Assembly (NCBI GenBank): GCA_963703905.1
Contig: CAVPFY010000006.1
Span: 198,841 to 262,840, forward strand
Direction of reading: 5' to 3'
DNA: 64,000 bases
Source of the DNA: an uncultured Chloroflexia bacterium
GTDB lineage: Bacteria > Chloroflexota > Dehalococcoidia > DSTF01 > WHTK01
Shown: positions 10,796 through 47,468 of the stretch, piece by piece
How positions within the stretch are numbered: position 1 is the first letter of the stretch
Layout of the letters: the number at the start of each line of letters is the position of its first letter
Notes under the pieces: generated by a model
The model's database searches: none
What the model was told of the DNA's origin: nothing
The model's input: only the letters and a program-made list of their open reading frames with translations
Made by a program: the position numbers and the translations under genes

Positions 10796-10874
10796 TTGGT
10801 GGGCCCTCTCGGATTCGAACCGAGGACCGACGGAATTAAAAGTCCGCTGCTCTACCGGACTGAGCTAGAGGCCC
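10796..10874 (-). tRNA. tRNA-Lys (anticodon TTT)
   Basis: Minus strand reads GGGCCTCTAGCTCAGTCCGGTAGAGCAGCGGACTTTTAAT(T)CCGTCGGTCCTCGGTTCGAATCCGAGAGGGCCCCACCA. It has the U8/TAGCTCAG D-arm, a CTTTTAA anticodon loop, a GGTTCGAATCC T-arm and an encoded CCA. One extra T after the loop breaks canonical pairing and is probably an indel. Confidence 0.7.
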
Positions 10875-10992
10875 GGAAAGTCCCCGGGCTGAATCTGCCA
10901 GGCAAGCTATGTCACTCCGGGTTGAGAACGAATACGTTGCTCATGCACTAGAGGCATCTGTGCAACGGATTATAACTGGAGGCTTGAGACCT

Positions 10993-15030: not shown

Positions 15031-15080
15031 CGGTTCGAGGGATTAAAAGTCCGCTGCTCTGCGACTGAGCTAGGGGCCCG
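15031..15080 (-). other. Partial second copy of the tRNA-Lys 5' half (acceptor 5' strand, D-arm, anticodon stem-loop)
   Basis: Minus strand reads CGGGCCCCTAGCTCAGTCGCAGAGCAGCGGACTTTTAATCCC..., about 85% identical to the 5' ~45 nt of the tRNA at 10796..10874. It then diverges and has no T-arm or acceptor 3' strand. It lies at the left edge of the AT-richer island. Confidence 0.55.
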
Positions 15081-15574
15081 AATAATTGCCTGTCTGAATC
15101 TAATCAGGGCAAGTTTGCCTGTTAGACTTGCCGACTAATCCTCTGGTGTTGCCCGAAGGACATTAGACCAGGGGATTGGTTACGCCGACTCCCGAACGCG
15201 ACTCGAACGGGCGGTGGCCTGCCAACTCGCTGGCGACAAAATCTTAGGTCTTCGTGTCGTCAGTCCGCAAGCAAACCTGGTCAGACGCAGAACGCGTGAC
15301 GTATGGCTGAGTTAGCGATTCAGGTGGTATGGAGTCCGAAACTCCCGCGCCTTCGCAGCTACTGCATCCCAGTCCTAGTTCTTGGCACTCATACGCGCGA
15401 AGTCGACTTTCCATGAACCATTCCGCAGTTGCCAACGATAAAGTCGTAGGTCTCTCCCATGCTCGCTATCGACCACGAGCAGGGCGGTACCTTCGACGTT
15501 CTGTGAATGTCATGCCCGTCCAAGACGGTATAACCGTCGAAGACGGGAAGAAAGCGGTCCTGCTCGCCCGACGG

Positions 15575-15985
15575 TCAGCCTGACGGATGTTCCAGTATCG
15601 TGTCTGGTTCCTCCACCTGGAGAGCTTCGTAGAGCGTCGATTTCTCAACGATGATCTTCTTTTTCAGAAATTCAAGCCCAGCTGCAGCTCTTCGTTCGCA
15701 TGAGGCATATGGTCGGTCGGCATCCTCAGGCGACAATGTTTCGACGAGCCTGCGAAGGCGGCCATCAGTATCGACCGAGCCAACATTCCACTTCGTCGCA
15801 ACCCGAGACATCGCCGCCAGAGGCTTCTGGAGACGGTTGGCGAATGCAACGCCAATTGCAACTTTATAGGCGTCAACTTCTTCGTTAAACCAACCGCTTC
15901 CCATCAACTCGGCTAGGATCAGTGCTCCGTCAGGAGTCACTCCCATTGTTTTCTTATCGTCGCGTTCTTCTGGCATCGGCCTCAC
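15575..15985 (-). CDS. Hypothetical protein (136 aa), last gene of the island operon
   Basis: ORF starts 3 nt after the stop of the SMC-like ATPase. No motif I recognize. Confidence 0.45.
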   Translation of the reverse strand: MRPMPEERDDKKTMGVTPDGALILAELMGSGWFNEEVDAYKVAIGVAFANRLQKPLAAMSRVATKWNVGSVDTDGRLRRLVETLSPEDADRPYASCERRAAAGLEFLKKKIIVEKSTLYEALQVEEPDTILEHPSG

Positions 15986-15987
15986 CC

Positions 15988-17958
15988 CTAAAGTGCTTCA
16001 ATCCTAGATCGGGTTGGCGATCCGTCTCGCAGGAGTCGATAATGACGCCCAATTTTGCCGGCCAAAGGCAGTAGGTCAGTGTCAAGGTTCATTTCGCCTG
16101 ATTGAACCAACAGTAGGACTTGGGGGCTCAGCAATGGGAGAAATTTCAGAATATTCTCGCGATGAGTGGTGTCGAGGCGTCCAAATGGGGTGTCCATGAC
16201 AAGTGGACCTTCACGCACGGAAGATCGGTTGAGGGCGCCAATTAACGATAAAGCGACAACCTGCTCTGCGCCTGCGGAGCGATCAAGAATGACTCGATTC
16301 GTGTCGTCCACTATGTTCAACCCATAGCTATCATTAATAGAAAGTCCAGAGTATCCGGGCTCGGTTGTAAGAGAGCGAAATATCCGAGACGCCTCGTCTT
16401 GGACTTGGACTTTGAGATCCTCTCGGAATTCCTCGATTGCCCAATCGAATAGGTCTCGAAGGCCGTCATATACCTCGGCCTCGGTGGCAATCTTCGGGTT
16501 GGCCTCGGGGAGCTTGGAAATCTGACTCCTTACTCGTCCGAGGAGGCCACGCTTTTCTTCTCGCTCAGTCGTAATTGCACGCATGTTGCGCTCAATTTCA
16601 TCCAATTCCACGACTACAGCATCGTAAGCCCGCTGAGTCTGGCGAATATCCTCGCTTGGATGCTGAGTGAGTCTCTCGTTAATCTCATTTAGCGTGCGCT
16701 GATCCCGTCGTATGTCGAGGTCTAAGCGACGATATGCTCTCTCGGCTGCCTGGATTGCGGGCAAATGCTGAACGCTTGCTAATTCTCGCAGGCCGCGCAT
16801 CAGAGTAGCGTCCGGGAAGGCCCCTTCTGCAGCTTCGGTCTCTCTCTGGTCCAATCGAATACGCAGTGCCTTGGACCGCTCTGACATCTCAGCCTTCGAC
16901 TCTTCATTCAGGGGTTGGCCACAGATGGGACAGGTGCCACTGTTTTTCAGTTCTTCCAGCGTACTCATCTCATGTCGCAAACCAACCAAATCGTCATGGA
17001 TCAGGCGAGCGCGGTCGAATGCCGTCTCTAAAAGATCCAATTGTTTACGTGCAGCAGCTCCAACAGGCTCCCACCAACCAAGGCTGACGTGACTCTTGAT
17101 CTCCCGTTGGAGCTCTAGCTTGTGCTCTTCTCCTTCCTTGACACGGGTTTCTAGTAAGGCAGCCTGTGTTAGATCTGCTTCCTCGGAAGCGTATCGCTCC
17201 CTTCTTTCGTTGAGATCGTCCTTCTGCTGTTCAAGGCTCGCTCGCTTTTCGACGAACGCAGCCATGTCTCGGTTTAGGGCTTCGATGCTGGCTTCGTAGT
17301 CTCTCGCTTCCTTTGCCAATGCTGCAGATCTTTGGCCCTGCCGTAGCGCTGCAGTTTGCCGACGCTGCGCCTGCCCGGTGAGTGAGTCTAGATCCTCGAC
17401 GGCGAGCCTAAGTGCGGGCAAGCCGAGGATGCGTTCAATAGCTTGCTTGATTATGTACGACTTTCTCGGATCAACGACTAGATCTTCGTACTCTGCGAGC
17501 ATTTCGCCGTCAAAGAGGAAGAACTGGGAGATGTCCTTGTGAAGGATGGACTGGACGATCGCGGGGATATTTTGTTCGTCCTCGAACACCCCGTCACGGC
17601 GCAAAGCCGTCTTGTAGGTGAGCAGATAGGCTGCCTTCGGGGGTCCGTTGGACTGGATCTGCCGTTCGAGGTGGTAGTCGTGGCCTCCATGACTGAAGTC
17701 GAGTTCAGTCCGCATGTGGTACTGGCCAATGTCGATGGCGTCATAACTTATTAGCCTGTAGTCCTGCTTGCGGACTGATTGCCTACCAAGAGCATCGCCG
17801 TAGAGGCACCAACGAATTGCATTCAAGATGGAGGTTTTGCCGCGCATGTTCTCTCCGTGCAGAACCACGACTGGGGCATTAGCCGAAACCTCAAGGTTGA
17901 GCTCATGCTCACCAAAAAAAGGGCCGAAGTTAACGAGCTTGAGTTTCTTGATCAGCAT
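15988..17958 (-). CDS. SMC/Rad50-like ABC ATPase of the DndD/AAA_23 type with a central CxxC zinc-hook motif
   Basis: N-terminal LKLVNFGPFFGEHELNL...VVLHGENMRGKTSILNAIRWCLYG (Walker A). Long coiled-coil-type low-complexity middle with CPICGQPL. C-terminal ...VVALSLIGALN...LVMDTPFGRLDTTHRENILKFLP...LLLV (signature, Walker B, D-loop typical of DndD-like proteins). GGAGAG RBS lies 5 nt upstream. Confidence 0.8.
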   Translation of the reverse strand: MLIKKLKLVNFGPFFGEHELNLEVSANAPVVVLHGENMRGKTSILNAIRWCLYGDALGRQSVRKQDYRLISYDAIDIGQYHMRTELDFSHGGHDYHLERQIQSNGPPKAAYLLTYKTALRRDGVFEDEQNIPAIVQSILHKDISQFFLFDGEMLAEYEDLVVDPRKSYIIKQAIERILGLPALRLAVEDLDSLTGQAQRRQTAALRQGQRSAALAKEARDYEASIEALNRDMAAFVEKRASLEQQKDDLNERRERYASEEADLTQAALLETRVKEGEEHKLELQREIKSHVSLGWWEPVGAAARKQLDLLETAFDRARLIHDDLVGLRHEMSTLEELKNSGTCPICGQPLNEESKAEMSERSKALRIRLDQRETEAAEGAFPDATLMRGLRELASVQHLPAIQAAERAYRRLDLDIRRDQRTLNEINERLTQHPSEDIRQTQRAYDAVVVELDEIERNMRAITTEREEKRGLLGRVRSQISKLPEANPKIATEAEVYDGLRDLFDWAIEEFREDLKVQVQDEASRIFRSLTTEPGYSGLSINDSYGLNIVDDTNRVILDRSAGAEQVVALSLIGALNRSSVREGPLVMDTPFGRLDTTHRENILKFLPLLSPQVLLLVQSGEMNLDTDLLPLAGKIGRHYRLLRDGSPTRSRIEAL

Positions 17959-18210
17959 CTAGCTCTCCAGGAATTCCTCGTCCACTTCAATGGAAATCAG
18001 TTCCTGCACTTTTCTTTGGAAAGGACGACGGTCGTCATCAAATTGATTTTCCCAAGCATCATTGAATACGGTTCGTACCAATTGTTCCGTCAGCACGGCC
18101 TTTGCATGGGGATCATTGATCTGGTCGACAAGCTTGGGAAGGTTGGCGATGAGGAGTTCCTGGGCGCGCTCCTTCGTTCGTGGTTCTGCGGCAGACGGCT
18201 GGTCGTTCAC
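17959..18210 (-). CDS. Small acidic hypothetical protein (83 aa), translationally coupled between the PLD-helicase and the SMC-like ATPase
   Basis: Its start overlaps the stop of the upstream gene, and its stop abuts the SMC-like ATPase start. No recognizable domain. Confidence 0.45.
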   Translation of the reverse strand: MNDQPSAAEPRTKERAQELLIANLPKLVDQINDPHAKAVLTEQLVRTVFNDAWENQFDDDRRPFQRKVQELISIEVDEEFLES

Positions 18211-20351
18211 TATTCTTCGTCCTCGAACTCCGTAACGGCCTCCGCCAACTCGGGCAGACCTAATCGGCGTGCCTTATTGCGAAGCGTATGACTAGCTGAG
18301 CGGTTTATCGCATTCTGTGCGAACTGAAATGCACGCGCTAATTCGACGCGATGGATAGCCAATCCCTCGCCCTTGTGAGATGTCGCTGGACTAGGAACGG
18401 TCAGGACATCATGGATTATGGCAAGCGGCTTGTCTGCAGCGGGGCGAAGGAGGCGTCCGCGTCGCTGGATAAACTCACGCGGATTCGAAGAGGAAGCAAG
18501 TACGAGGGCCTTATTCACCTCTGGGATATCGACGCCCTCATCGAGACAGCCGATGGCCACCAAGACTCCGCCGTGCCTACGGAAGTGTTCCATTGACTCT
18601 CGTCGCGACCCGAGCATCGCCGAGTGGTACTCCAGGGCAGGTAGCCCGAGGGCATTCAGAGATTCTAGGACTGACTTCAGTTGCCGCCGGTTATCACAAT
18701 AGACTAGCCAGCGGTCACCATCTCTGAACTCGCGCGACAAGACGTCAGCGGCCATAGCCACCTTGCCTTCGGCGTTCTTCACGATTCGCGCGCGTTTTAT
18801 GAGCAACATCTTGAATTGGAACGAGAGTTCCTTTTCTCCTGTCAGGTCGTCTGGAAGGAGAGCGTAAGCCTTCTCTATCTTCGTGGTGGCATCATCCCAG
18901 GCGGCCTGCTCTGATTCCGTGAGTGAAACTTCGTGCGTCCAGTATTCATATGGAACTAGCGCACCGGTCTTGATTCCGTCCTTGAGAGTAAAGGCTGGGG
19001 CCAAGTCTCCGGCGAAATAGCTTCGAATAGCAGAGGTGCCCTCGGGATCACCGTACCGTCGGGGCGTGGCACTTAGACCGAGGCGAGCACCGGCCGAGAT
19101 AGTCATGCATCTTCGATAGGAAGGACTGCCAAGCCGATGAACCTCGTCGGCGACAACGAGCAGATGATCTCCCGGAACAATCCGACTGAGAAAACGCTTG
19201 GATGCGGCGGTTTGGACAGTGCTAATCGTCAGCCTGGGACCGAGGTAGAGGTCTGACCTAGTAAAATCCGCGAGGCTATCCTCCCAACCGCGGTCTGACT
19301 TGCTTCCCCCGACCACTAGAAACCTTGGGTCGAGGTCGTCTAGGACTTCTTGAGCTATCTTGAACCATTGCAGGGAAAGTAGTTCACTGGGCACTAAGAC
19401 CAACGCGGGCCTGCCGTCCTTTATCCAGTCACGAATTATGGCTAGCGCAGTGATCGTCTTCCCGGAACCTGTCGCATGAGTGACAATCCCAGCGTGGCCC
19501 GACCTGTGCCAACTACGTAAGGCAGCCAATTGGTGAGGTCTCAGGTCATAAGACATTCTAGGTTCACCGCGCTCCCGCGACTCGTTTTCAAGTTCGACAT
19601 ACTGCTCTTGCCGGCCCAGCCCAAAGAAAGGCTTCACGACCAAGTCATGTTCGTTGCCGCGCCAGAGGGACTCGAAATAGGCCGCTACCGCCTGAACTCT
19701 TCCCATCTCCTCTGGGGACTCCCAGGACTTGAACGTAGCGATGACCTCGTGATTCCCAAGTGTTGAAAATGCGTTAGCACTCTCATTTGCGGAGCCGACG
19801 CTAGCGATGCGTCTCCCGCTCAACGCCGTAAAAATCGCGACTTTGGAGTGGAACATGCCGTTCGACGTGGTTGTCGTCGCGATTCTGATGTCTAACACGC
19901 CGCTCGCCACTAGCAACCTCAAGAGGTGCGTTGTCGACTGAGCGAGTGAAAGCTCGTTCAGAGCTGCACCTCGTTCTTGCGCGGTTGACGCAAACCTTTG
20001 CCGATAACCTTCCGAAATCGCTTCCCAGTCGGCATCTGAAACTCGAGGTGAGCAAACGAGGCGCATCCTTCCGCGTCTATCCGCGAACTCCAAAATCTCG
20101 GGCTTGACTAGTTCAAAGACCGAGCTGCTAAAGAATCCTGCGGCGCGGTCGTACTTGATCGCCGTAGCAATTGAAGGCGCATACAAGTCCTGAGCAAGGT
20201 TGCACCCACTGCTCGTGTGCCAGCCAATTTCCGGCTGACGGTCAACGAGAGAGTCAGGAGGCGTGTTCAGTGAGTCTTTCCTGTTCATCACTCCACGATG
20301 GTAGATGCTGATTGCCCGAGGGCCTAAAGTAAAAAACTTTACTTCGAGCAT
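18210..20351 (-). CDS. PLD-family (HKD) nuclease domain fused to an SF2 DEAD/DEAH-box helicase (ResIII plus Helicase_C)
   Basis: N-terminal HKD motif MFHSKVAIFTALSGRRIASVGSANES. Helicase motifs LRPHQLAALRSW (Q), HATGSGKT (I), VVADEVHRLG (II), GLSATPRR (III), VLVAIGCLDEGVDIPEVN (V), QRRGRLLR (VI). 713 aa, intact. Confidence 0.85.
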   Translation of the reverse strand: MLEVKFFTLGPRAISIYHRGVMNRKDSLNTPPDSLVDRQPEIGWHTSSGCNLAQDLYAPSIATAIKYDRAAGFFSSSVFELVKPEILEFADRRGRMRLVCSPRVSDADWEAISEGYRQRFASTAQERGAALNELSLAQSTTHLLRLLVASGVLDIRIATTTTSNGMFHSKVAIFTALSGRRIASVGSANESANAFSTLGNHEVIATFKSWESPEEMGRVQAVAAYFESLWRGNEHDLVVKPFFGLGRQEQYVELENESRERGEPRMSYDLRPHQLAALRSWHRSGHAGIVTHATGSGKTITALAIIRDWIKDGRPALVLVPSELLSLQWFKIAQEVLDDLDPRFLVVGGSKSDRGWEDSLADFTRSDLYLGPRLTISTVQTAASKRFLSRIVPGDHLLVVADEVHRLGSPSYRRCMTISAGARLGLSATPRRYGDPEGTSAIRSYFAGDLAPAFTLKDGIKTGALVPYEYWTHEVSLTESEQAAWDDATTKIEKAYALLPDDLTGEKELSFQFKMLLIKRARIVKNAEGKVAMAADVLSREFRDGDRWLVYCDNRRQLKSVLESLNALGLPALEYHSAMLGSRRESMEHFRRHGGVLVAIGCLDEGVDIPEVNKALVLASSSNPREFIQRRGRLLRPAADKPLAIIHDVLTVPSPATSHKGEGLAIHRVELARAFQFAQNAINRSASHTLRNKARRLGLPELAEAVTEFEDEE

Positions 20352-21376
20352 CAGGGCTGGAGGTCATTTAGGTCGTCGACTAGATTCATGCCCGCGCGGA
20401 AGTCCTTTTGTTCCAGTGGAAGAAGGATGACCTCTCGCACGCCGCCATGGTCGTCTAAAAGGTCGATTCCGCGATCAAGAACAAAGGAGAACTGTTCCGT
20501 AGCGAGAAAGCGTGCGTGTTCTAGATGGGAAGCCGTCGTTTCGGCTTTAACAACGATTCGGACCGTCACTCTAGGTGAGAGCGCTTGGAGATCACTCTCC
20601 AAGCGCTTTAGAGCTGCTAGAACCTCTTTCTGGCCTGCCGGACTGATCAGATTCGTGCGGATGCCCGTGTATATCGTTAGTTCTCGTTCATCAGTGCCGG
20701 TCGGGCCAGTCGCGTCCATCTGCTCGACCACCCAACGCGTCGTTGAGCGGTAGCCGAGGTTGATTGTTGCTTCGCGCTGGCCGCTTACCTTGGCTACGAC
20801 ATGGCTGCCGAGTGCGTAATCAACGATCGTCAGCCGGCGAGCGTACTGGAAGAGTGGCTTCCAAACGAGATCCTCGATTTGACTGATAGTGAATTGCCCT
20901 GGCGTGGAACGAAAGCTGCGGGCTGCAGCCAGGTTCTCCCGGCCTTCATAGCTGGCGTATTGGAGGGGGTCTTGAAAATGAATCGGACCAGCGTCGCACA
21001 GATGCACATCGGGACAAGCCGTGGGGCGGACAACAAGATCCGTCTGGCATATGGACGTCAAATAGAGCGCCACTGAGCAAGCCTTTTCCTGGCATTCAGT
21101 CTGTGGAGACTTCATGCCATCGGCGGGAACTCTCACGATTCGATGACGAGTGTCAAGATTCCGAAGCAGTTCCTTGGCTCGCTTACGTCTGTTGACGTCC
21201 CAGCGATCAAGGTATTGGGTTATGGCCTTTCTGATGGATCCTTCCCGATCGAGGAGCAGTAAGGTTCCGTACTGCGCGTCCACAAGAAGGTTTAAGATCA
21301 GCGCTTCATACACTTGGCCTGCGGGCTCCACAGAAGAATCGTAAGCCTTAGGAAGGTGCACGGTCTTGATTAACAT
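20351..21376 (-). CDS. Hypothetical protein (341 aa), coupled partner of the upstream ABC-type ATPase
   Basis: Start overlaps the ATPase stop and its stop overlaps the PLD-helicase start. No recognizable catalytic motif. Confidence 0.5.
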   Translation of the reverse strand: MLIKTVHLPKAYDSSVEPAGQVYEALILNLLVDAQYGTLLLLDREGSIRKAITQYLDRWDVNRRKRAKELLRNLDTRHRIVRVPADGMKSPQTECQEKACSVALYLTSICQTDLVVRPTACPDVHLCDAGPIHFQDPLQYASYEGRENLAAARSFRSTPGQFTISQIEDLVWKPLFQYARRLTIVDYALGSHVVAKVSGQREATINLGYRSTTRWVVEQMDATGPTGTDERELTIYTGIRTNLISPAGQKEVLAALKRLESDLQALSPRVTVRIVVKAETTASHLEHARFLATEQFSFVLDRGIDLLDDHGGVREVILLPLEQKDFRAGMNLVDDLNDLQP

Positions 21377-22936
21377 CAGGAGAACATCTCGCCGTAGGCT
21401 TCTTCAAAGAAACCATCCGGCCAGTCGTCGAGAAAGTCGCCATCCTCGCCGAGACGCAAGACCTCACAAACTGAACCGGAGGACTTCTTTCGCACGTAAA
21501 TGACGGAAATGTCAGACGGGCCAAGCTGCCCTTCTCGGATGAGCCTTTGAAGTCGGAGGATGAGGTGCTCGCTATGCGTCTCAATGAGAAACTGGTTCGG
21601 TGTGGGTCCTGAAATCGCGTCCGCAAAGAGTGAGCCGAGTTCGGCTTGGAGCCTCGGATGCAAATGTATCTCTGGTTGTTCTATGAGAACTGTGGCCCGT
21701 TGGGATAACAACGACTGCACAATGATAGGAAGGACTTGGCTTATACCGAAGCCAACTTCCAGAAGGTTCATTTCAACGCCAGAGTCATTGTCCGTCAATA
21801 GGAGCCTAAAGACGTCGTCCGTTTGGCCGCCCCTGGAATGATCAACACTCAGAACGTAGCCAATCCCGAAGCTCTTGAGATAACTATTTACGCGTTCCAA
21901 AACTTCTGGTCGCGAACTAAGAAGCTCTGGCAAGTTCTCTCCCGCCTTACCCACTGTCGCCGCCGGGTTACCACTTGCGATGTAGTATCTCGAAGGATAT
22001 TCGCGTAAAGGCCCGAGGTAAGTCATCCGGTCCCATTGCGCTTTAGCACGCGTAGCTAGAGCGATGGCCCAATCAAATGGGTTAGGGCGCCATGCACCTT
22101 CGGAAGGGAGGGTTGTTGCAGGGAGCGATGCAGGGTCATTGAACCGCGATGCAAGCCGTGCCTTTTCGTGAGGTATGAAGCTCCGAAGAAGCAATACCTC
22201 TTCGTTCCCAACAGACTCAATGTCTTCTATGAACAGCTTCGAGCTGTAATCTGAAAGCCTGCGAGCGTGGTCAGTCAGCCGAGCATATTCCTGGCCAGGC
22301 TGTGTTCCTTCTTCTCTCATTCGGTCCACTAGATCGATTAGGTTGCCCAAGTATTCTTGACGCTGCTCCCGAGTTGCTCGATAAAAGTCCTCCCAGAACG
22401 GGTGGTCTACATTGACACGCGGGGAACCAACACTCAAGGAGTCACTATTCGCCGAAGAAGGCACGAGAGGAGTAACTTCCTTACTCCGAGACCCGAGAGT
22501 CAAGATCGGCTCATGAGAGTCGTTGCGATAGATCGGAAGCTCGCTGAGTTGAATTGTCTTGGTCGCGTCGTCAAGAAAAAATCGGATACCGAGCCCCATT
22601 GCACTTTCGCCGGTGGGGTCCATCACTACCCGCAACGGGTCAGCTAACGTCATGTCTGAATCATCCAGTAGGAGTGCAATCTCGCAGAGCCGCGAGGAGT
22701 CGTGACCATACACAAAGTCACTGAAGCCCCCAAGGTCAGTAAGACGACCTCTCGTAATTCAGGAAACGGTTTGTATCACCTTGCTCAGCTAAAGTTTGCT
22801 TGAGTAACAATAGAGACTGTAACAGCGACGATTTGCCAGAACTATTGGGGCCGAAAATTAGCGTTATTGGAGCCAACGGGACGTGAACCCGGTTTCCGAA
22901 GGCCTTGAAATTTTCCAATACCAGCGACTTGAACAT
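21376..22936 (-). CDS. AAA_21/ABC-type ATPase with DUF3696-like C-terminus (OLD/PARIS/AbiL-class defense ATPase), one frameshift near 22720
   Basis: N-terminal 66-aa ORF LENFKAFGNRVHVPLAPITLIFGPNSSGKSSLLQSLLLLKQ (Walker A). It continues in ORF 21376..22713 with YLGPLREYPSRYY (Q-loop-like), LEVGFGISQVLPIIVQ (signature-like), TVLIEQPEIHLHPRLQAEL (Walker B/D-loop) and IETHSEHLI (H-loop). Confidence 0.75.
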
Positions 22937-23772
22937 TAGTGGTCCTTCTGTCGAATCACTCGACTTCGTCGAGATCGAATGCCCAAAGCAAGCAGCCGAG
23001 CTCGGAGTGTATGCGGCTTGAGGCCGAGCGATTTAGCCGCAGCTGATGCGTTTCCGGCCTGTGAGTCTAAGGCTCGAATGATGATTTCGATTTCTTGTGC
23101 CTTCAAATAGTCGCTAAGCCCAACGCCCTCGGACAGCTGCTGGCCTGGATACGCGGAAGGTTCTGCCTGATTCTGAGTTAGTTGGGCCTTCAAAAAGAGA
23201 TTCTCTAAACGCAGGTTCTCATTCTGACTTCTCAGCAGCCGCAACTCATTGTCTCCACTTGGCGGGACAACGGTCGGTAGATCCGAGCCATCTAGGTCTA
23301 CGGGTCGCCAGAATGGAACGCCGGGAGTTGCCAGGTCAAGCGGAGTCGCAGTTAGCATCTTGGCCGGAAGTATCTTGGATTGAACCAGCAAGAACCACAC
23401 GGTCTGCATCTGGGGTGTGCCTGGAGACAGATAGACGTAATAGCTACGCTCTTGATTGCCTTCGTCATTGACGATCTCTTCACACGTCTGGCGTGTTGCG
23501 TGAAAGACTTCCGTATAATCCGTCACATTAACTACATCCACGACCTTCTGAGTGACTCTCATCGCGGGGTAGAGCTTTCGGCACTCGCGAAGCAGCGCTG
23601 TCGCGCGAGTTGCATAATCATTAGGTGACCCGAATAGATTAACAAGGAAATAGATGGCAGCAAAACGTCTTGCGGAGAGCAACGATAAGATAGGCCCTGG
23701 TTCATCCCGTTTGGTCCTCGGGTTAAACCACGTCGGATCCCTTGAACCGACCCAGGTTAGGAGCACATCCAA
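22936..23772 (-). CDS. Putative regulator with N-terminal CARF/RtcR-N-like domain and C-terminal Fis-type HTH, no AAA+ domain
   Basis: N-terminal MDVLLTWVGSRDP...YVYLSPGTPQMQTVWFLLV. C-terminal IEIIIRALDSQAGNASAAAKSLGLKPHTLRARLLALGI is a classic Fis/NtrC-type HTH. Its stop overlaps the start of the ATPase gene. Confidence 0.55.
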   Translation of the reverse strand: MDVLLTWVGSRDPTWFNPRTKRDEPGPILSLLSARRFAAIYFLVNLFGSPNDYATRATALLRECRKLYPAMRVTQKVVDVVNVTDYTEVFHATRQTCEEIVNDEGNQERSYYVYLSPGTPQMQTVWFLLVQSKILPAKMLTATPLDLATPGVPFWRPVDLDGSDLPTVVPPSGDNELRLLRSQNENLRLENLFLKAQLTQNQAEPSAYPGQQLSEGVGLSDYLKAQEIEIIIRALDSQAGNASAAAKSLGLKPHTLRARLLALGIRSRRSRVIRQKDH

Positions 23773-23807
23773 CGCTTCGCCCCGCCTCTACGAATAAATT
23801 CGTTGCA

Positions 23808-24374
23808 TTATAGGTAACTTCCTGACCTCGAAGCCGGTATGCCGTCTCGTGGGAGGTCAGTCATGTCTCCAACCAGGCTTTCTAGCAGGGCGCAGTCTGC
23901 CTCAAGCGAGATCTGAAGCCGTTCAACGGTCTCAGAAATCTTTACGGCGTTGCTTCTCGCGGTGTCCGACCACTTCCGAACTTCTGAGAGGTCCTTTGTT
24001 GCACGCGCTATGCGTTCGATCGCATGACTGAGCCTCTCGAGTTCTGGGTGGCTTCCTCTCTTGCTTGTTCTGGCGCCCGCAAGGAGCGAGACCCCTACGG
24101 CCAATGCTGCCCTCAGAAGCCACCCGGTTGGGTCAATATCGGGATCCCAGACCACAATGACATCATTTCCGACTCGCCAGATAGGCTCTAGGTTGGCGGG
24201 TGCCACGCTCTGCGAAAAAACAAAAACACCAACTTCAGCTTGCCTATTCTTCCGAGCCGTCGCCAACTCATCGAGGGCCTTCTTGAGCGAGTAGCCTGCG
24301 GCGTCCTTCGCTTCGACCACGATGCGCCCCGCATGGAGCCGCGGAGTCATTGCTGAGCGTGACGACGAAGTCAC
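23808..24374 (-). CDS. Hypothetical protein (188 aa), possible PD-(D/E)xK-like nuclease fold (weak)
   Basis: GRIVVEAKDAAGYSLKKALDEL resembles an (E/D)xK nuclease motif in a beta-strand context. Tentative. Confidence 0.4.
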   Translation of the reverse strand: MTSSSRSAMTPRLHAGRIVVEAKDAAGYSLKKALDELATARKNRQAEVGVFVFSQSVAPANLEPIWRVGNDVIVVWDPDIDPTGWLLRAALAVGVSLLAGARTSKRGSHPELERLSHAIERIARATKDLSEVRKWSDTARSNAVKISETVERLQISLEADCALLESLVGDMTDLPRDGIPASRSGSYL

Positions 24375-25049
24375 CTACCTTGCAACGGGGCAGGTCACCA
24401 GGAAAGCTGCTGGTCTCATCGGGAGTGTGTCCACGATGCGTAGCAAAGTCGATGACAACTTTACCGACATCTTCTTGGAAGTCCCAACCATGAAGGGGAG
24501 AAGCAAGACGCTCCCTCTTTGAAGCAGCGACCCCAGCAAGCGTCGTCCTAACATCGGTCTGAAACTCCTTTTGGGTCTGACTGAGTTCAGTAAGGCGCAA
24601 ATCGAGTCGCCCGCGAGAGACGGCTCAGGGATGAAGACATCATCGTCGAGGGAGAATTGCTGGCTGATGGTCAAAGTGGCCTTTTCGGCTTGGCGAACCA
24701 ACCGGGACATCGACGAATTCGGATCGTCCAGCGACATTTCCTTGAGGAGTAGATCGATGTCGGTCTTGAATTCCTTCTTCATACTTCCATTCGCGTCTGT
24801 CGAATCCCTAGGGAGGCGCGACAAGGCTGAGCTCGGGTCGTCAAGTGTGAAGTCGGCCGCCAGCGACTCTCGTTGCGCCTCCAAGGCTTCAGTGACCACC
24901 CTTTCTAACATTGCCAAAAGGCCAGCCTTCTCGGACGGCGACAGCAATCGGAAAAGAGGGCTTTCTGTTCCAACGTGTAGGGCCAGCGTGTGCGCAAGAG
25001 TGCCGTCGGACCCATTGAGGTGCCTACGCAAGAGGCCGTCGGGCCTCAC
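24375..25049 (-). CDS. Hypothetical protein (224 aa) with internal LDDPxSxxSRL repeats
   Basis: FTLDDPSSALSRLP / MSLDDPNSSMSRLV / FSLDDDVFIPEP repeats. Adjacent to the previous ORF; a 66-aa ORF at 25024..25224 may be its frameshifted N-terminus. Confidence 0.4.
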   Translation of the reverse strand: MRPDGLLRRHLNGSDGTLAHTLALHVGTESPLFRLLSPSEKAGLLAMLERVVTEALEAQRESLAADFTLDDPSSALSRLPRDSTDANGSMKKEFKTDIDLLLKEMSLDDPNSSMSRLVRQAEKATLTISQQFSLDDDVFIPEPSLAGDSICALLNSVRPKRSFRPMLGRRLLGSLLQRGSVLLLPFMVGTSKKMSVKLSSTLLRIVDTLPMRPAAFLVTCPVAR

Positions 25050-25680
25050 CGCCGTCCTTCACGAGTCGCTCAATCCTCTGAGTAACGTTGCCGGTAAGAG
25101 GATCGAAGTACTGGGCGAGTTCCGAAGTCAGGCCACTGCGCAGTTGGACTGCATGGGACGTCAAGGTCCTCTCCAAATCGGACAAAAGGCGGTCCGACTC
25201 CTGCCTTAAGGAGACAATATCCATCTCCGCGAGCGTGCTTTAGGGAAAGCACGCCCAATCGCAGCGCTCCGAGCGCATAGCTCGTCTGGTCGCCTCGGGT
25301 TGCCTGGTTATCTCCTGGATGACCTCGGCGTCGATGACCTGGAGATGGAGCAATATCCCTGTGCTCTTGACGGGACTTCTTGGCTGGTCATATCCGCACA
25401 ATAAGCAGATCGACCGGATTGACAAAAGGTAAACACTTTTACTTCTACCAATTGCTCGACGCCCTACGCGCAGCGCACGTGCCGCGTTTAGGGCCATGGC
25501 GCCAACCGCAGCGGCACCCGACGGTGAACTGGCGAGCCCCTTTGTAAAGACACCAGCCTTGACTGCCAAAAGCGGCCTGAATCCAGTCGATTCGCCGCCT
25601 TCGGCCACTATTTCGCCGAGGGTGGCTGTGTGACAATTGCGCCGGTGGTAAAACAACTTGCTCTCAGCCTGGCGCCTTTA

Positions 25681-26632
25681 TTGCCACGTCTGCGTCGTAA
25701 TCGCGCGGCGTTCGTGCGGCGTATAAGACCACGCTGGGCACGTGCTTCCGCGGTGATAGCCTTCCATGGCTGAAATCAATCCCAGATGCGTCGGTCGACC
25801 TAATACTGACATCCCCGCCATTCGCCTTGAACAGGAAAAAGGCTTATGGCAATGAGCCCGAGTCAAGCTATGTTGAGTGGCTGCTGCCTTTCGCCGATGA
25901 GGTATGGAGGGTGCTTAAGCCGTCCGGCAGTTTCGTTTTGGAGCTTGGATCGGCGTGGATGCCTGGCAGTCCGACTCGGAGCCTTTACCAATTCAAAGTC
26001 CTGCTCGCCTTGACCGGCAGAGACGTAAAGCATTTCACCTTGCCCAGGACTTCTATTGGTATAACCCGGCCCGTCTTCCTTCGCCCGCACAATGGGTAAC
26101 CATTGACCGTGTTCGGATAAAGGATTCAGTGAGTCCCATATGGTGGCTCTCAAAAACGGAACACCCAAAAGCTGATAATCGTGATGTACTGAAGGAATAC
26201 AGTTCTGCACAGAACGATCTCTATAAGAATGGGTTTAATGCTGGACTAAGACCGTCTCATCACCGTGTATCCAAGGAAGCGTTCAACAAGAATAATGGTG
26301 GCGCTATACCCGCAAATCTATTACCTATAGAAAATCTGCTAACAGTCGCAAATACTTCGTCGTCCGATCGTTATCTCAAAGCGTGTCGAGAAAGAGGCAT
26401 CCTGGTACACCCAGCAAGATTCCCATCGGATATCCCTCATTTCTTCATAAGTTTCTTGACGGACATTGGGGATGTAGTTGTTGATCCTTTTTCAGGAAGT
26501 AACGCTGTAGGTGCGACGGCCGAGATCTTGCAGCGTCGTTGGCTTTCTTGTGATTTGGACATGGACTACGTGAAAGGTAGCCGGTTCAGATTTGATCCTG
26601 TTCCAAGTCTACTGCCACTGAGTCCAAGTTGA
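25681..26632 (+). CDS. Beta-class N4-cytosine/N6-adenine DNA methyltransferase (N6_N4_Mtase family), about 2 frameshifts
   Basis: RGDSLPWLKSIPDASVDLILTSPPF (motif IV, SPPF, preceded by the typical GD..L..LPD.SVDLI context). NPARLPSPAQW...W mid-region. C-terminal VVDPFSGSNAVGATAEILQRRWLSCDLD (motif I, FxGxG AdoMet pocket). The IV-then-I order is typical of beta-class enzymes. Confidence 0.75.
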
Positions 26633-27118
26633 AGGTGTGCAGGCCTCGCGTCAATCAACGTGCCTGGTAGCCGTTGCTCAGACCGTCGGAGTGGGTATCC
26701 TCCGGTGGGACCGCGACGGACTGGGTATCCGTTGCTCCGCGGCTATACCGGCTGGGCAGCACCGCGGCCTCTGCAATAGCAGTGGTGCCGCAACCGCACC
26801 TCGGCACGCCCGCAGGCCCGGCCTGCGGCTAATGCGCGTACGGTAGTGATCCATTAACAGGCGTATCATGTGTACATGTGCGGCTGCGTCTCTTCCGATG
26901 GGAGCAGCCGGGGCAGCGCGGCCGTCGCGAACGCGGCGGCGGGCTGCGATGGACCCTGCCCGCCGAGTGCGGGAGGAGGCCAAAGCTGTGGGTTTCTTGC
27001 TAAAGGCCGATTCCCCCCAGGCCTGCCCTGAGCGGAGCCGAAGGGATTGGGGGCCAGGGGGTCGCTTCCCCCTGATCCCGCGCAACTCGCTGGCGCGACG
27101 GCGGCGAAGGAGGCAGCC

Positions 27119-27604: not shown

Positions 27605-27812
27605 AATCACCGAAAAACAAAAACAATCAAAGCGAACTCTCGCTGACGGCTCCGCCTGGTCGGAACCCCCTCGCCCTTCATGCATGTCCTGAGCTGGGTC
27701 GAAGGAGGAGAGGGGGCAGGGGGAGAGGGTTCAGAGACCCCCGTCAGCGCTTGCGCACCTCCTCCCTAGGCCGGCCAGGCGCGTCTGGCGGTCGAGCAGT
27801 CCGGAATTCTGG

Positions 27813-27844
27813 CCGACAAGCCGACAAGCCGACAAGCCGACAAG
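27813..27844. repeat. Perfect tandem octamer (CCGACAAG)x4
   Basis: Directly visible as gccgacaagccgacaagccgacaagccgacaagccc, in the 450-bp noncoding region upstream of leuA/cimA. Confidence 0.9.
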
Positions 27845-29679: not shown

Positions 29680-30243
29680 ATGATCGCGCATGCCGTTAGC
29701 TACAAGTTCACTGTGGACAAGTTCGACCGCATGACCGAGGCCGGAATATTGCGCGAGGACGATCGGCTGGAGCTAATTGAAGGAGACATCGTCTGCATGC
29801 CACCCATAGGCAGTCATCACTTGTGGGCGGTCAACAGATTGACGAATGCCTTTGCCGTTCTTGCCGTTTCTCGCAGGGCGCTCATCAGCGTCCAGAACCC
29901 GATCTTCGTCAGCGACCAATCAAGGCCACAGCCGGACGTGGTCCTGCTTCCCTTCAGCGATACTCCTGACCGCGACCGTCTACCAGCGCCAGCAGACGTG
30001 CTCCTGCTTATTGAGGTTGCAGACACCTCGGTGGACTATGACCGCTTGATTAAGCTGCCCCTCTACGCCGCCGCCGGTATCACTGAGGTATGGCTGGTTG
30101 ACCTGACCGAGGACAGTGTGGAGGTCTACCGTAAACCCTCGGGTGACGCCTACACGGAAATGGTCACGCACGTTCGCGGCGACACCATCTCGCCACTGGC
30201 CTTTCCCGACTTCGTCGCCAAGGTCGAAGAGATCATCGGCTAG
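29680..30243 (+). CDS. Uma2 family endonuclease (DUF820, restriction-endonuclease-like fold)
   Basis: FTVDKFDRMTEAGILREDDRLELIEGDIVCMPPIGSHH...DVLLLIEVADTSVDYDRLIKLPLYAAAGITEVWLVDL has the family-typical ELI.G and D...EV.. catalytic signature. Confidence 0.75.
   Translation: MIAHAVSYKFTVDKFDRMTEAGILREDDRLELIEGDIVCMPPIGSHHLWAVNRLTNAFAVLAVSRRALISVQNPIFVSDQSRPQPDVVLLPFSDTPDRDRLPAPADVLLLIEVADTSVDYDRLIKLPLYAAAGITEVWLVDLTEDSVEVYRKPSGDAYTEMVTHVRGDTISPLAFPDFVAKVEEIIG

Positions 30244-45624: not shown

Positions 45625-47468
<1,844 letters not shown>

Follow-up and report, generated by a model that had tools for sequence, protein, structure and literature searches.

We analysed a window of 64,000 nucleotides (nt) from an uncultured Chloroflexia bacterium (assembly GCA_963703905.1, contig CAVPFY010000006.1, positions 198,841 to 262,840; all coordinates below are positions within this window), which includes a low-GC island at approximately 15.1-26.65 kb. 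We read this island as a horizontally acquired composite, in which three modules of known types are arranged in one co-directional gene chain accompanied by a divergent methyltransferase (MTase) gene, and assign this reading a probability of roughly 0.7. Module A is a PbeABCD system, module B a DUF3696-tailed ABC ATPase with its partner protein and a preceding CARF regulator, and module C comprises the MTase gene and an endonuclease-like gene. A preliminary description of the window had proposed a defence island, which our data support together with its horizontal acquisition, and had suspected a novel unclassified system, which instead resolved into three modules of known kinds in PADLOC, Pfam and NCBIfam searches. 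Its fallback, two or three nested small systems under one promoter, is the version favoured by the evidence. A false call of an unclassified system is thereby removed: four of the nine genes are assigned to PbeABCD and the others fall into described families. New here is the arrangement itself, namely a Menshen-type pair lacking NsnA, headed by a short RtcR-like CARF-HTH (helix-turn-helix) protein and joined to a PbeABCD cassette without dnd genes, with a PvuII-family MTase nearby. The genes of the island are, from right to left:

25710-26632, plus strand: beta-class N4/N6 MTase of the PvuII family with the motif IV sequence SPPF, frameshifted near 26025 and divergent from the operon
23808-25224, minus strand: broken endonuclease-like gene delimited by frame analysis, with at least three frameshifts, ending 35 nt upstream of the regulator gene
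22936-23772, minus strand: RtcR-like regulator of 278 amino acids (aa) with a CARF and a Fis-type HTH_8 domain and a TTG start (Pfam RtcR 1.7e-10, HTH_8 5e-7)
21376-22936, minus strand: DUF3696-tailed ABC ATPase, NsnB/HEC-03/PDC-M55A-like, reconstructed to 520 aa across a +1 frameshift at 22759
20351-21376, minus strand: ATPase partner and putative effector of 341 aa with NsnC-like architecture, a PIN-like N-terminal and an MIT_C/PLD (phospholipase D)-like C-terminal domain
18210-20351, minus strand: pbeA, 713 aa, intact, with an HKD/PLD nuclease domain and a superfamily 2 (SF2) helicase (PADLOC PbeA 1.1e-174, full length)
17959-18210, minus strand: small pbeB-like gene (83 aa) flanked by pbeA and pbeC, assigned from its position and size
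15988-17958, minus strand: pbeC, 656 aa, intact, DndD-like ABC ATPase with zinc hook (PADLOC PbeC 3.1e-133, full length)
15575-15985, minus strand: pbeD-like, 136 aa, assigned by position, size and one pairwise match

The island carries a tightly packed gene chain

In 500-nt windows, GC content ranged from 0.46 to 0.58 at 15.0-26.5 kb, compared to 0.62-0.72 in the flanks. Concordantly, the GC content at third codon positions (GC3) was about 0.54-0.60 in open reading frames (ORFs) of the island and 0.8-0.9 in host genes. Both measures bear out the drop in GC that had been noticed between a partial tRNA-Lys copy and about 26.65 kb. On the minus strand, stop and start codons overlap by 1 nt at 22936, 21376, 20351 and 18210, while the remaining junctions of the chain from 23772 down to 15575 have gaps of 0 nt (17958/17959) and 2 nt (15985/15988). 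Overlaps or gaps of at most 3 nt had been claimed for this chain, and every gap was indeed 2 nt or shorter. The coordinates given for the ORFs of 136, 656, 83, 713, 341 and 278 aa were likewise correct, and all Pfam domains that had been expected (AAA_23, PLDc_2, ResIII, Helicase_C, AAA_21, DUF3696 and N6_N4_Mtase) were found. The gene inventory stood only in part: the ORF positions were right, whereas the ATPase and the MTase are not encoded by single ORFs and the gene at approximately 25224-23808 had been overlooked. The chain is probably translationally coupled and we infer that it is co-transcribed; a scan for promoters and terminators returned no more sites than expected by chance.

Four distal genes match the PbeABCD system

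By sequence comparison, the segment 15575-20351 is assigned to an intact PbeABCD or CxC-ABC-ATPase/DndE system in canonical A-B-C-D order. PbeABCD was described as associated with phosphorothioation (PT) of DNA, and the Haloterrigena cassette acts together with DndCDEA (Xiong et al. 2019, PMC6459918). The system was re-annotated by the Aravind laboratory as 'CxC ABC ATPase-DndE', with PbeA as HKD endoDNase and SF2 helicase, PbeB as a small disordered protein, PbeC as zinc-hook ABC ATPase and PbeD as a DndE cognate (PMC10853773). The window shares with these systems the four co-directional genes, the small protein between A and C, the protein of about 135 aa after C (PbeD of H. jeotgali has 152 aa; PMC6459918), the combination of HKD/PLD domain and SF2 helicase in PbeA and the DndD-like ABC ATPase with zinc hook in PbeC. 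The four genes had been judged as part of a combination unlike any known Dnd/Ssp-type system, a view that the full-length PADLOC matches of PbeA and PbeC overturn.

PbeA contains the Pfam domains PLDc_2, ResIII and Helicase_C and matched TIGR04095 (dnd_restrict_1) at 3e-86, under the cutoff of that model. PbeC matched the PADLOC DndD models more weakly (1e-55) than the PbeC model and reached 178 bits with TIGR03185 (DndD), below its cutoff of 246 bits; it furthermore carries AAA_23 (1.6e-15) and Rad50_zn_hook at residues 334-360, with a CPIC motif in the sequence. The pbeB-like ORF overlaps pbeA by 1 nt and abuts pbeC, and counterparts of 83 aa occupy the same place in a metagenomic contig of the Joint Genome Institute (JGI), described below, and in a Logan contig. 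The 83-aa protein had no family match in sequence searches of Pfam, PADLOC, NCBIfam and PDB. The 136-aa protein also remained without a match in Pfam, NCBIfam, PADLOC and PDB sequence searches, DndE families included. It is 38% identical (E 4e-9) to the product of the gene that follows PbeC on an Aurantiacibacter plasmid; the JGI contig encodes an equivalent of 135 aa.

The closest annotated PbeA (43.6% identity) is encoded on this plasmid of Aurantiacibacter atlanticus (NZ_CP015441, locus L031) in an operon with the order MTase-PbeA-PbeB-PbeC-PbeD, and no dnd genes are present in the annotated approximately 9 kb on either side. The MTase gene of this operon overlaps pbeA, and its product is 45% identical to the window MTase. 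The two arrangements differ in that the MTase gene adjoins pbeA on the plasmid, whereas four other genes lie between them in the window, where the MTase gene is located 5.4 kb upstream of pbeA, carries a frameshift and may be the partner of the neighbouring endonuclease-like gene. On the same plasmid, the gene after PbeD (L031 13558-14871) encodes a sigma-70-like HTH protein that matched NCBIfam MzaA (MZA anti-phage sigma factor) at 2e-15 and may be a further regulator linked to a Pbe operon. With PbeA as the only query, a metagenome scan yielded no match.

Homologues of DndB, DndC, DndE and SspABCD were not detected by tblastn anywhere in the 64-kb window. In the lack of dndCDEA the window departs from the PT-associated arrangement and corresponds to the 'solitary', methyltransferase-proximal situation. 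Solitary Pbe cassettes are numerous (PMC6459918, PMC10853773), some of them with circularly permuted N4-cytosine methylases (PMC10853773), and 155 out of 320 solitary pbeAC pairs are located near methyltransferases (PMC6459918). Alternatively, PbeABCD might be the restriction arm of a canonical PT system that has its dndCDEA or sspABCD genes at another place in the genome, the MTase serving only a type II restriction-modification (RM) pair. This would agree with the 233 of 553 PbeAC pairs that lie within 10 kb of dndCD (PMC6459918), with more distant PbeA relatives beside dndBCDE (L032) or an ssp-like cluster (L033), and with the endonuclease-like partner next to the MTase gene. The absence of Dnd and Ssp homologues from the window, the dnd-free operon of the closest annotated PbeA with its homologous MTase and the description of methyltransferase-linked CxC systems (PMC10853773) oppose it, and we regard it as unlikely. 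As no dnd or ssp genes occur in the window, the mark by which PbeABCD would distinguish self from non-self would be a DNA modification, most likely methylation by the nearby MTase. According to the roles proposed in the literature, the zinc-hook ABC ATPase PbeC and the small PbeD would scan or clamp DNA, PbeA would act as translocating effector and PbeB as a small regulator.

A DUF3696 ATPase and its partner resemble NsnB and NsnC of Menshen

The reconstructed ATPase matched the PADLOC models PDC-M55A (8e-58), NsnB (5.2e-54) and HEC-03B (3e-52) and the Pfam families AAA_15, AAA_21 and DUF3696, and has a non-canonical Walker B motif (LIEQPE). The 341-aa protein encoded directly downstream, which had been left without assignment, is the cognate partner of this ATPase and shows the architecture of Menshen NsnC by predicted structure. 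It had no sequence match in Pfam, NCBIfam, PADLOC (including the NsnC model) or PDB. A high-confidence AlphaFold2 (AF2) model, built from an alignment of 119 sequences, consists of an N-terminal PIN-like and a C-terminal MIT_C/PLD-like domain, and its structural neighbours are MIT_C (2YMB), NucT and Tdp1, as for NsnC. The near-invariant residues of the family (D186, H287, R289, T293, Q295 and G303) are all located in the MIT_C/PLD-like domain, and the family alignment contains no conserved acidic PIN quartet.

Besides itself, the 341-aa protein has one close relative among 5.8 billion clustered proteins. At E<=1e-3, a profile search of 1.84 billion representatives retrieved 438 members (50%-identity cluster representatives), nearly all of 320-350 aa; a family of this size with a clear PIN-like and MIT_C/PLD-like fold is thus covered by no Pfam or PADLOC model. 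The partner is 24-30% identical to the products of genes directly after DUF3696 ATPases in loci L001, L003 (twice), L004, L007, L017 and L020, and in all contexts seen (10/10) the family gene lies directly downstream of such an ATPase. Searches of plasmids and viral contigs yielded no member.

Menshen is the NsnABC system (Millman 2022, as cited in PMC12065111), in which the sensor NsnA, a ParB-DUF262 plus ParBDB protein, is encoded upstream of NsnB and for which an NsnC of the 'inPIN plus PB-PLD1' type has been described (PMC12065111). The ATPase corresponds to NsnB in architecture (ABC ATPase with DUF3696 C-terminal helix), and the partner to NsnC, with an inactive-looking PIN-like domain and a 'PB-PLD1'-type PLD/MIT_C-like domain encoded immediately after the ATPase. 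They differ from Menshen in that the partner matched no PADLOC NsnC model and in that no NsnA gene is present here or in the related loci examined, where the position upstream of the pair holds a CARF-HTH regulator gene or nothing. Among the operon proteins no DUF262 match was found in Pfam, PADLOC or NCBIfam, the upstream gene being the CARF-HTH gene, and NsnA is absent also from the JGI contig, L001, L003, L004, L007 and L020. Since NsnA, the Menshen-defining third gene, is absent, we classify ATPase and partner only as a Menshen-like two-gene unit. NsnB/NsnC pairs of this type are widespread without the NsnA sensor and are sometimes found under RtcR-like CARF regulators.

A second comparison is offered by the PADLOC candidates HEC-03 and PDC-M55, which likewise consist of an ABC ATPase and a PIN-family partner and are often embedded in other systems; HEC-03, an ATPase plus PIN system with activity shown by experiment, was discovered inside other defence systems (bioRxiv 2024.01.29.577857). 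The HEC-03 partner is VapC-like with an apparently active PIN domain, whereas the PIN-like domain here has no conserved catalytic acids and is fused to the MIT_C/PLD-like domain, and no HEC-03 or PDC-M55 model in PADLOC matched the 341-aa protein. The pair is inserted between hsdS and hsdM in L001 and follows hsdS in L007; these positions inside type I RM loci are consistent with HEC-03-like embedding. Two ATPases that do not belong together had been seen in this operon. They belong to separate modules, each of which occurs alone elsewhere. In the proposed mechanism of the pair, the DUF3696 ATPase would act as sensor or transducer and control the 341-aa protein, which in turn would bind and cut nucleic acid.

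A short RtcR-like CARF-HTH protein precedes the pair

The 278-aa protein matched PADLOC CARF models down to 1.9e-26, and Pfam detected no Sigma54_activat domain, i.e. no sigma-54 AAA+ module. By analogy, it is a putative ligand-responsive transcription regulator of the chain. The pair is preceded by a CARF regulator gene in the window, in the JGI contig and in L016 and L003. In L003 the regulator is 47.5% identical and stands ahead of two tandem ATPase-partner pairs, and L016 contains the C-terminal part of a 70%-identical regulator gene ahead of the pair. L005 has a gene for a 53%-identical CARF-HTH protein followed by a NERD-helicase gene and, where the contig ends, by the N-terminal part of an NsnB-like ATPase. 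L007 (Parahaliea maris NZ_VRZA01000004, 9992-20479) encodes a full RtcR-like activator (CARF, sigma-54 AAA+ and HTH_8) directly upstream of hsdR-hsdM-hsdS, which are followed by the DUF3696 ATPase and the partner; the arrangement has the appearance of an RtcR-led defence operon and comes from a cultured isolate. In L003 (3288-9114), the CARF-HTH gene and the duplicated pair form one operon beside a type I RM HsdR/YgjP remnant.

With CoCoNuT systems, genes for RtcR-like CARF proteins open long co-directional defence 'superoperons' at the 5' end, and the proteins have been proposed to sense RNA fragments with cyclic-phosphate ends (PMC11090510). The window resembles these superoperons in that a CARF protein heads a long, co-directional and tightly spaced chain of several defence systems. 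It deviates in the regulator, which consists of CARF, linker and HTH_8 without the sigma-54 AAA+ module, and in the downstream systems, which are the NsnBC-like pair and PbeABCD instead of CoCoNuT/McrBC. By analogy to RtcR and Csa3, the regulator would adjust transcription of the chain once it has bound a signal nucleotide, for instance RNA ends with a 2',3'-cyclic phosphate or cyclic oligoadenylate. An extended version of this idea is a layered, CARF-controlled superoperon, in which the CARF-HTH protein senses infection-derived nucleotides and the NsnA-less pair is wired to a methylation-dependent PbeABCD, for example with PbeC-PbeD as DNA sensor. If true, DNA-modification-based restriction would be coupled to an abortive effector in a composite mechanism of a new kind; we give this version little credence.

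The MTase gene lies head-to-head with an endonuclease-like gene

The reconstructed MTase matched Pfam N6_N4_Mtase over its full length (1.9e-32) and PADLOC MTase_II (3e-101). It shares 56.8% identity with a Thiothrix plasmid MTase whose gene neighbours that of an HNH nuclease. To the MTase of the 4.7-kb Proteus vulgaris plasmid NC_002632 it shows 47.5% identity across 96% of its length; this is the PvuII plasmid pPvu1, and its enzyme is the N4-methylcytosine (m4C) methyltransferase M.PvuII. The overlooked minus-strand gene encodes coiled-coil repeats followed by a PD-(D/E)xK-like core (GDFVV...VVEAKD); in the same position, the JGI contig has the orthologue as an uninterrupted ORF of 509 aa. 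The gene showed a weak similarity to Mrr_cat (E 0.007), and its reconstructed product had no match in Pfam, PADLOC, NCBIfam or PDB. In tblastn it resembled archaeal plasmid genes at 25-38% identity (E 1e-6 to 2e-10), and the annotation of two of these genes reads 'restriction endonuclease'. From these similarities the gene at 23808-25224 is a probable restriction endonuclease gene, and the segment 23808-26632 likely represents a head-to-head type II RM pair of MTase and Mrr-like endonuclease with putative shared specificity.

The MTase had been described as an orphan encoded convergently to the operon. In fact its gene is divergent from the operon and, as suggested by the weak tblastn matches, adjacent to a restriction-endonuclease-like partner gene. 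The pair shares with PvuII-type RM systems a beta-class SPPF MTase transcribed divergently from a nuclease-like gene. Unlike these systems, it has no evident C-protein gene, its putative endonuclease, of about 500 aa and containing coiled-coil repeats, bears no relation to R.PvuII, and both genes are frameshifted here. The 45% identity to the Aurantiacibacter MTase was considered as a sign of co-evolution with PbeA and rejected, as MTases of type II RM systems are equally or more similar.

Frameshifts and the state of this copy

The ATPase had been taken for a single ORF at 21376-22936, and the MTase for one gene at 25681-26632; the frame is broken in both. One extra base at 22759 interrupts the ATPase gene. 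The part encoding Walker A starts with the ATG at 22936 and ends after 66 codons, and the rest is an ORF of 445 codons at 21376-22713. An intact orthologue (P0003, 519 aa, 84% identical) aligned to the gene in two frames meeting at 22760/22758, and the deposited ATPase protein (P0004) is a 425-aa truncation. In the MTase gene, the N-terminal part with SPPF is read from 25710, the C-terminal part corresponds to the ORF 25955-26632 and the break is located near 26025.

Altogether, five frame breaks were found in the genes of ATPase, MTase and endonuclease-like protein (approximately 3.9 kb), whereas the remaining 6.7 kb of coding sequence in the island contains none, and the break sites are not long homopolymers. 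Because the breaks cluster in three genes, they argue for real decay, and with three genes frameshifted the sequenced copy of the locus may lack full function. Were the frameshifts real, only PbeABCD, the regulator and the effector would be intact and the island would be decaying. It is then conceivable that the island is a non-functional remnant in this genome, with the RM pair and the ATPase inactivated and PbeABCD inert without a modification partner. The distribution of the breaks, their sequence context, the truncated ATPase in the deposited annotation and the broken ATPase, at a different site, of the third known copy (L016) all point in this direction. In addition, PbeABCD loses activity and is not toxic in the absence of PT (PMC6459918), and an intact PbeABCD beside a dead MTase would fit this published inertness if the breaks are real. 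Against a remnant, apparent 1-nt indels occur also in the housekeeping gene typA/bipA and in the anticodon loop of tRNA-Lys, and the assembly may thus carry indel errors. We place the probability of this alternative just short of an even chance. In typA/bipA (approximately 45640-47468, plus strand), a 1-nt insertion in a CGCGCG run near 45745-45755 places the G1 motif (AHVDHGKTT) and the rest of the protein in different frames.

Related loci and conservation of the composite

The nine-gene layout is intact beside an integrase gene in JGI contig 3300056388 (15.2 kb), which encodes in this order the integrase, the MTase (328 aa, on the opposite strand), the 509-aa protein, the RtcR/HTH_8 regulator, the ATPase (519 aa), a 346-aa partner, PbeA (715 aa), an 83-aa protein, PbeC (663 aa) and a 135-aa protein. 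Its ATPase and partner are 84% and 71% identical to those of the window, and the partner gene overlaps pbeA by 4 nt, compared to 1 nt in the window. A further metagenomic contig (L016, 1.9 kb) retains the regulator/ATPase/partner junctions at 70-89% identity. Its ATPase gene (323-1872) is frame-broken between residues 407 and 408, unlike the site in the window, and a protein with an aberrant tail (P0005) probably derives from a contig similar to L016. A metagenome scan with the ATPase alignment recovered L016 and not the JGI contig. With regard to the synteny check suggested earlier, the order of the nine genes is thus conserved in the JGI contig and in part in L016, although narrowly, within one lineage.

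Elsewhere the modules occur apart. The MTase-PbeABCD operon stands alone in Aurantiacibacter, and the ATPase-partner pair is found alone (L004) or in type I RM loci (L001, L007). We therefore interpret the block as stacked systems travelling together on an integrative element and not as one obligate machine, since the copies represent one close lineage and each module occurs alone elsewhere. One could instead imagine a single integrated and hitherto undescribed system that extends from the CARF-HTH protein to PbeD, with or without the MTase, and in which the NsnB/NsnC-like pair and PbeABCD are interdependent, for example with PbeC-PbeD replacing NsnA. Such a system would account for the close spacing from 23772 to 15575, where adjoining genes either overlap by 1 nt or lie no more than 2 nt apart, for the gene order and effector/pbeA overlap shared with the JGI contig, and for the sensor that appears to be 'missing' with NsnA absent. 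It is contradicted by the separate occurrence of both modules and by the CARF-HTH protein with two pairs and no Pbe genes in L003. Moreover, the three copies belong to one close lineage (70-89% identity where comparable), so that their conservation is weak evidence, and independent systems are commonly packed tightly in defence islands, as with 'embedded' systems (bioRxiv 2024.01.29.577857). We consider a single integrated system quite unlikely.

Several points weigh against the stacked composite that we prefer. The conserved effector/pbeA overlap would also be compatible with functional coupling of modules A and B, and the composite is known from only three copies, which are closely related to each other (70-89% identity for the sequences that could be compared). 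PbeB is assigned by position and size and PbeD by position, size and a single pairwise match, its DndE fold being putative. The MTase is about as similar to MTases of type II RM systems (47-57%) as to the Pbe-linked one (45%), which makes it ambiguous which nuclease it serves. The frameshifts may be assembly errors, as typA/bipA and the tRNA-Lys anticodon loop also show apparent 1-nt indels. Finally, all proposed mechanisms are borrowed from relatives and would apply here by analogy. The intact nine-gene version of the JGI contig would provide a compact test bed, both for the coordination of several systems by a CARF-HTH protein and for methylation versus phosphorothioation as the mark of a solitary PbeABCD.

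Island borders and neighbouring genes

The left edge of the low-GC island, at the GC drop, is marked by a partial copy of a tRNA gene, which had been placed at about 15.03 kb and was confirmed:

15039-15101, minus strand: tRNA-Lys fragment comprising the 5' half and upstream flank, in direct repeat with 10832-10896 as read in the sequence

The repeat (10832-10896 and 15039-15101) duplicates the 5' half of the tRNA gene and approximately 22 nt of its upstream flank 4.2 kb away. The complete tRNA-Lys(UUU)-like gene (10797-10874, minus strand) has an anticodon loop of 8 nt (CTTTTAAT) and could not be named by ARAGORN. The possibility that the island is bordered by tRNA attachment (att) repeats was rejected, as the repeat pair encloses 10.8-15.1 kb, outside the defence island. 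This segment has intermediate GC content and carries AAA_28, alpha/beta-hydrolase-LuxR and OmpA/PorE-like genes and no integrase gene.

At the island edge at 26.65 kb, neither an integrase gene nor a repeat was found, and no gene recognisable by Pfam was found at 26.65-28.05 kb. In this high-GC segment immediately to the right of the island, the octamer GCCGACAA is present in about four perfect tandem copies with a period of 8 nt (27812-27843). Further to the right, 3 kb from the island and beside leuA, a gene at 29680-30243 (plus strand) encodes a putative restriction endonuclease of the Uma2 family (Pfam 2.3e-33).

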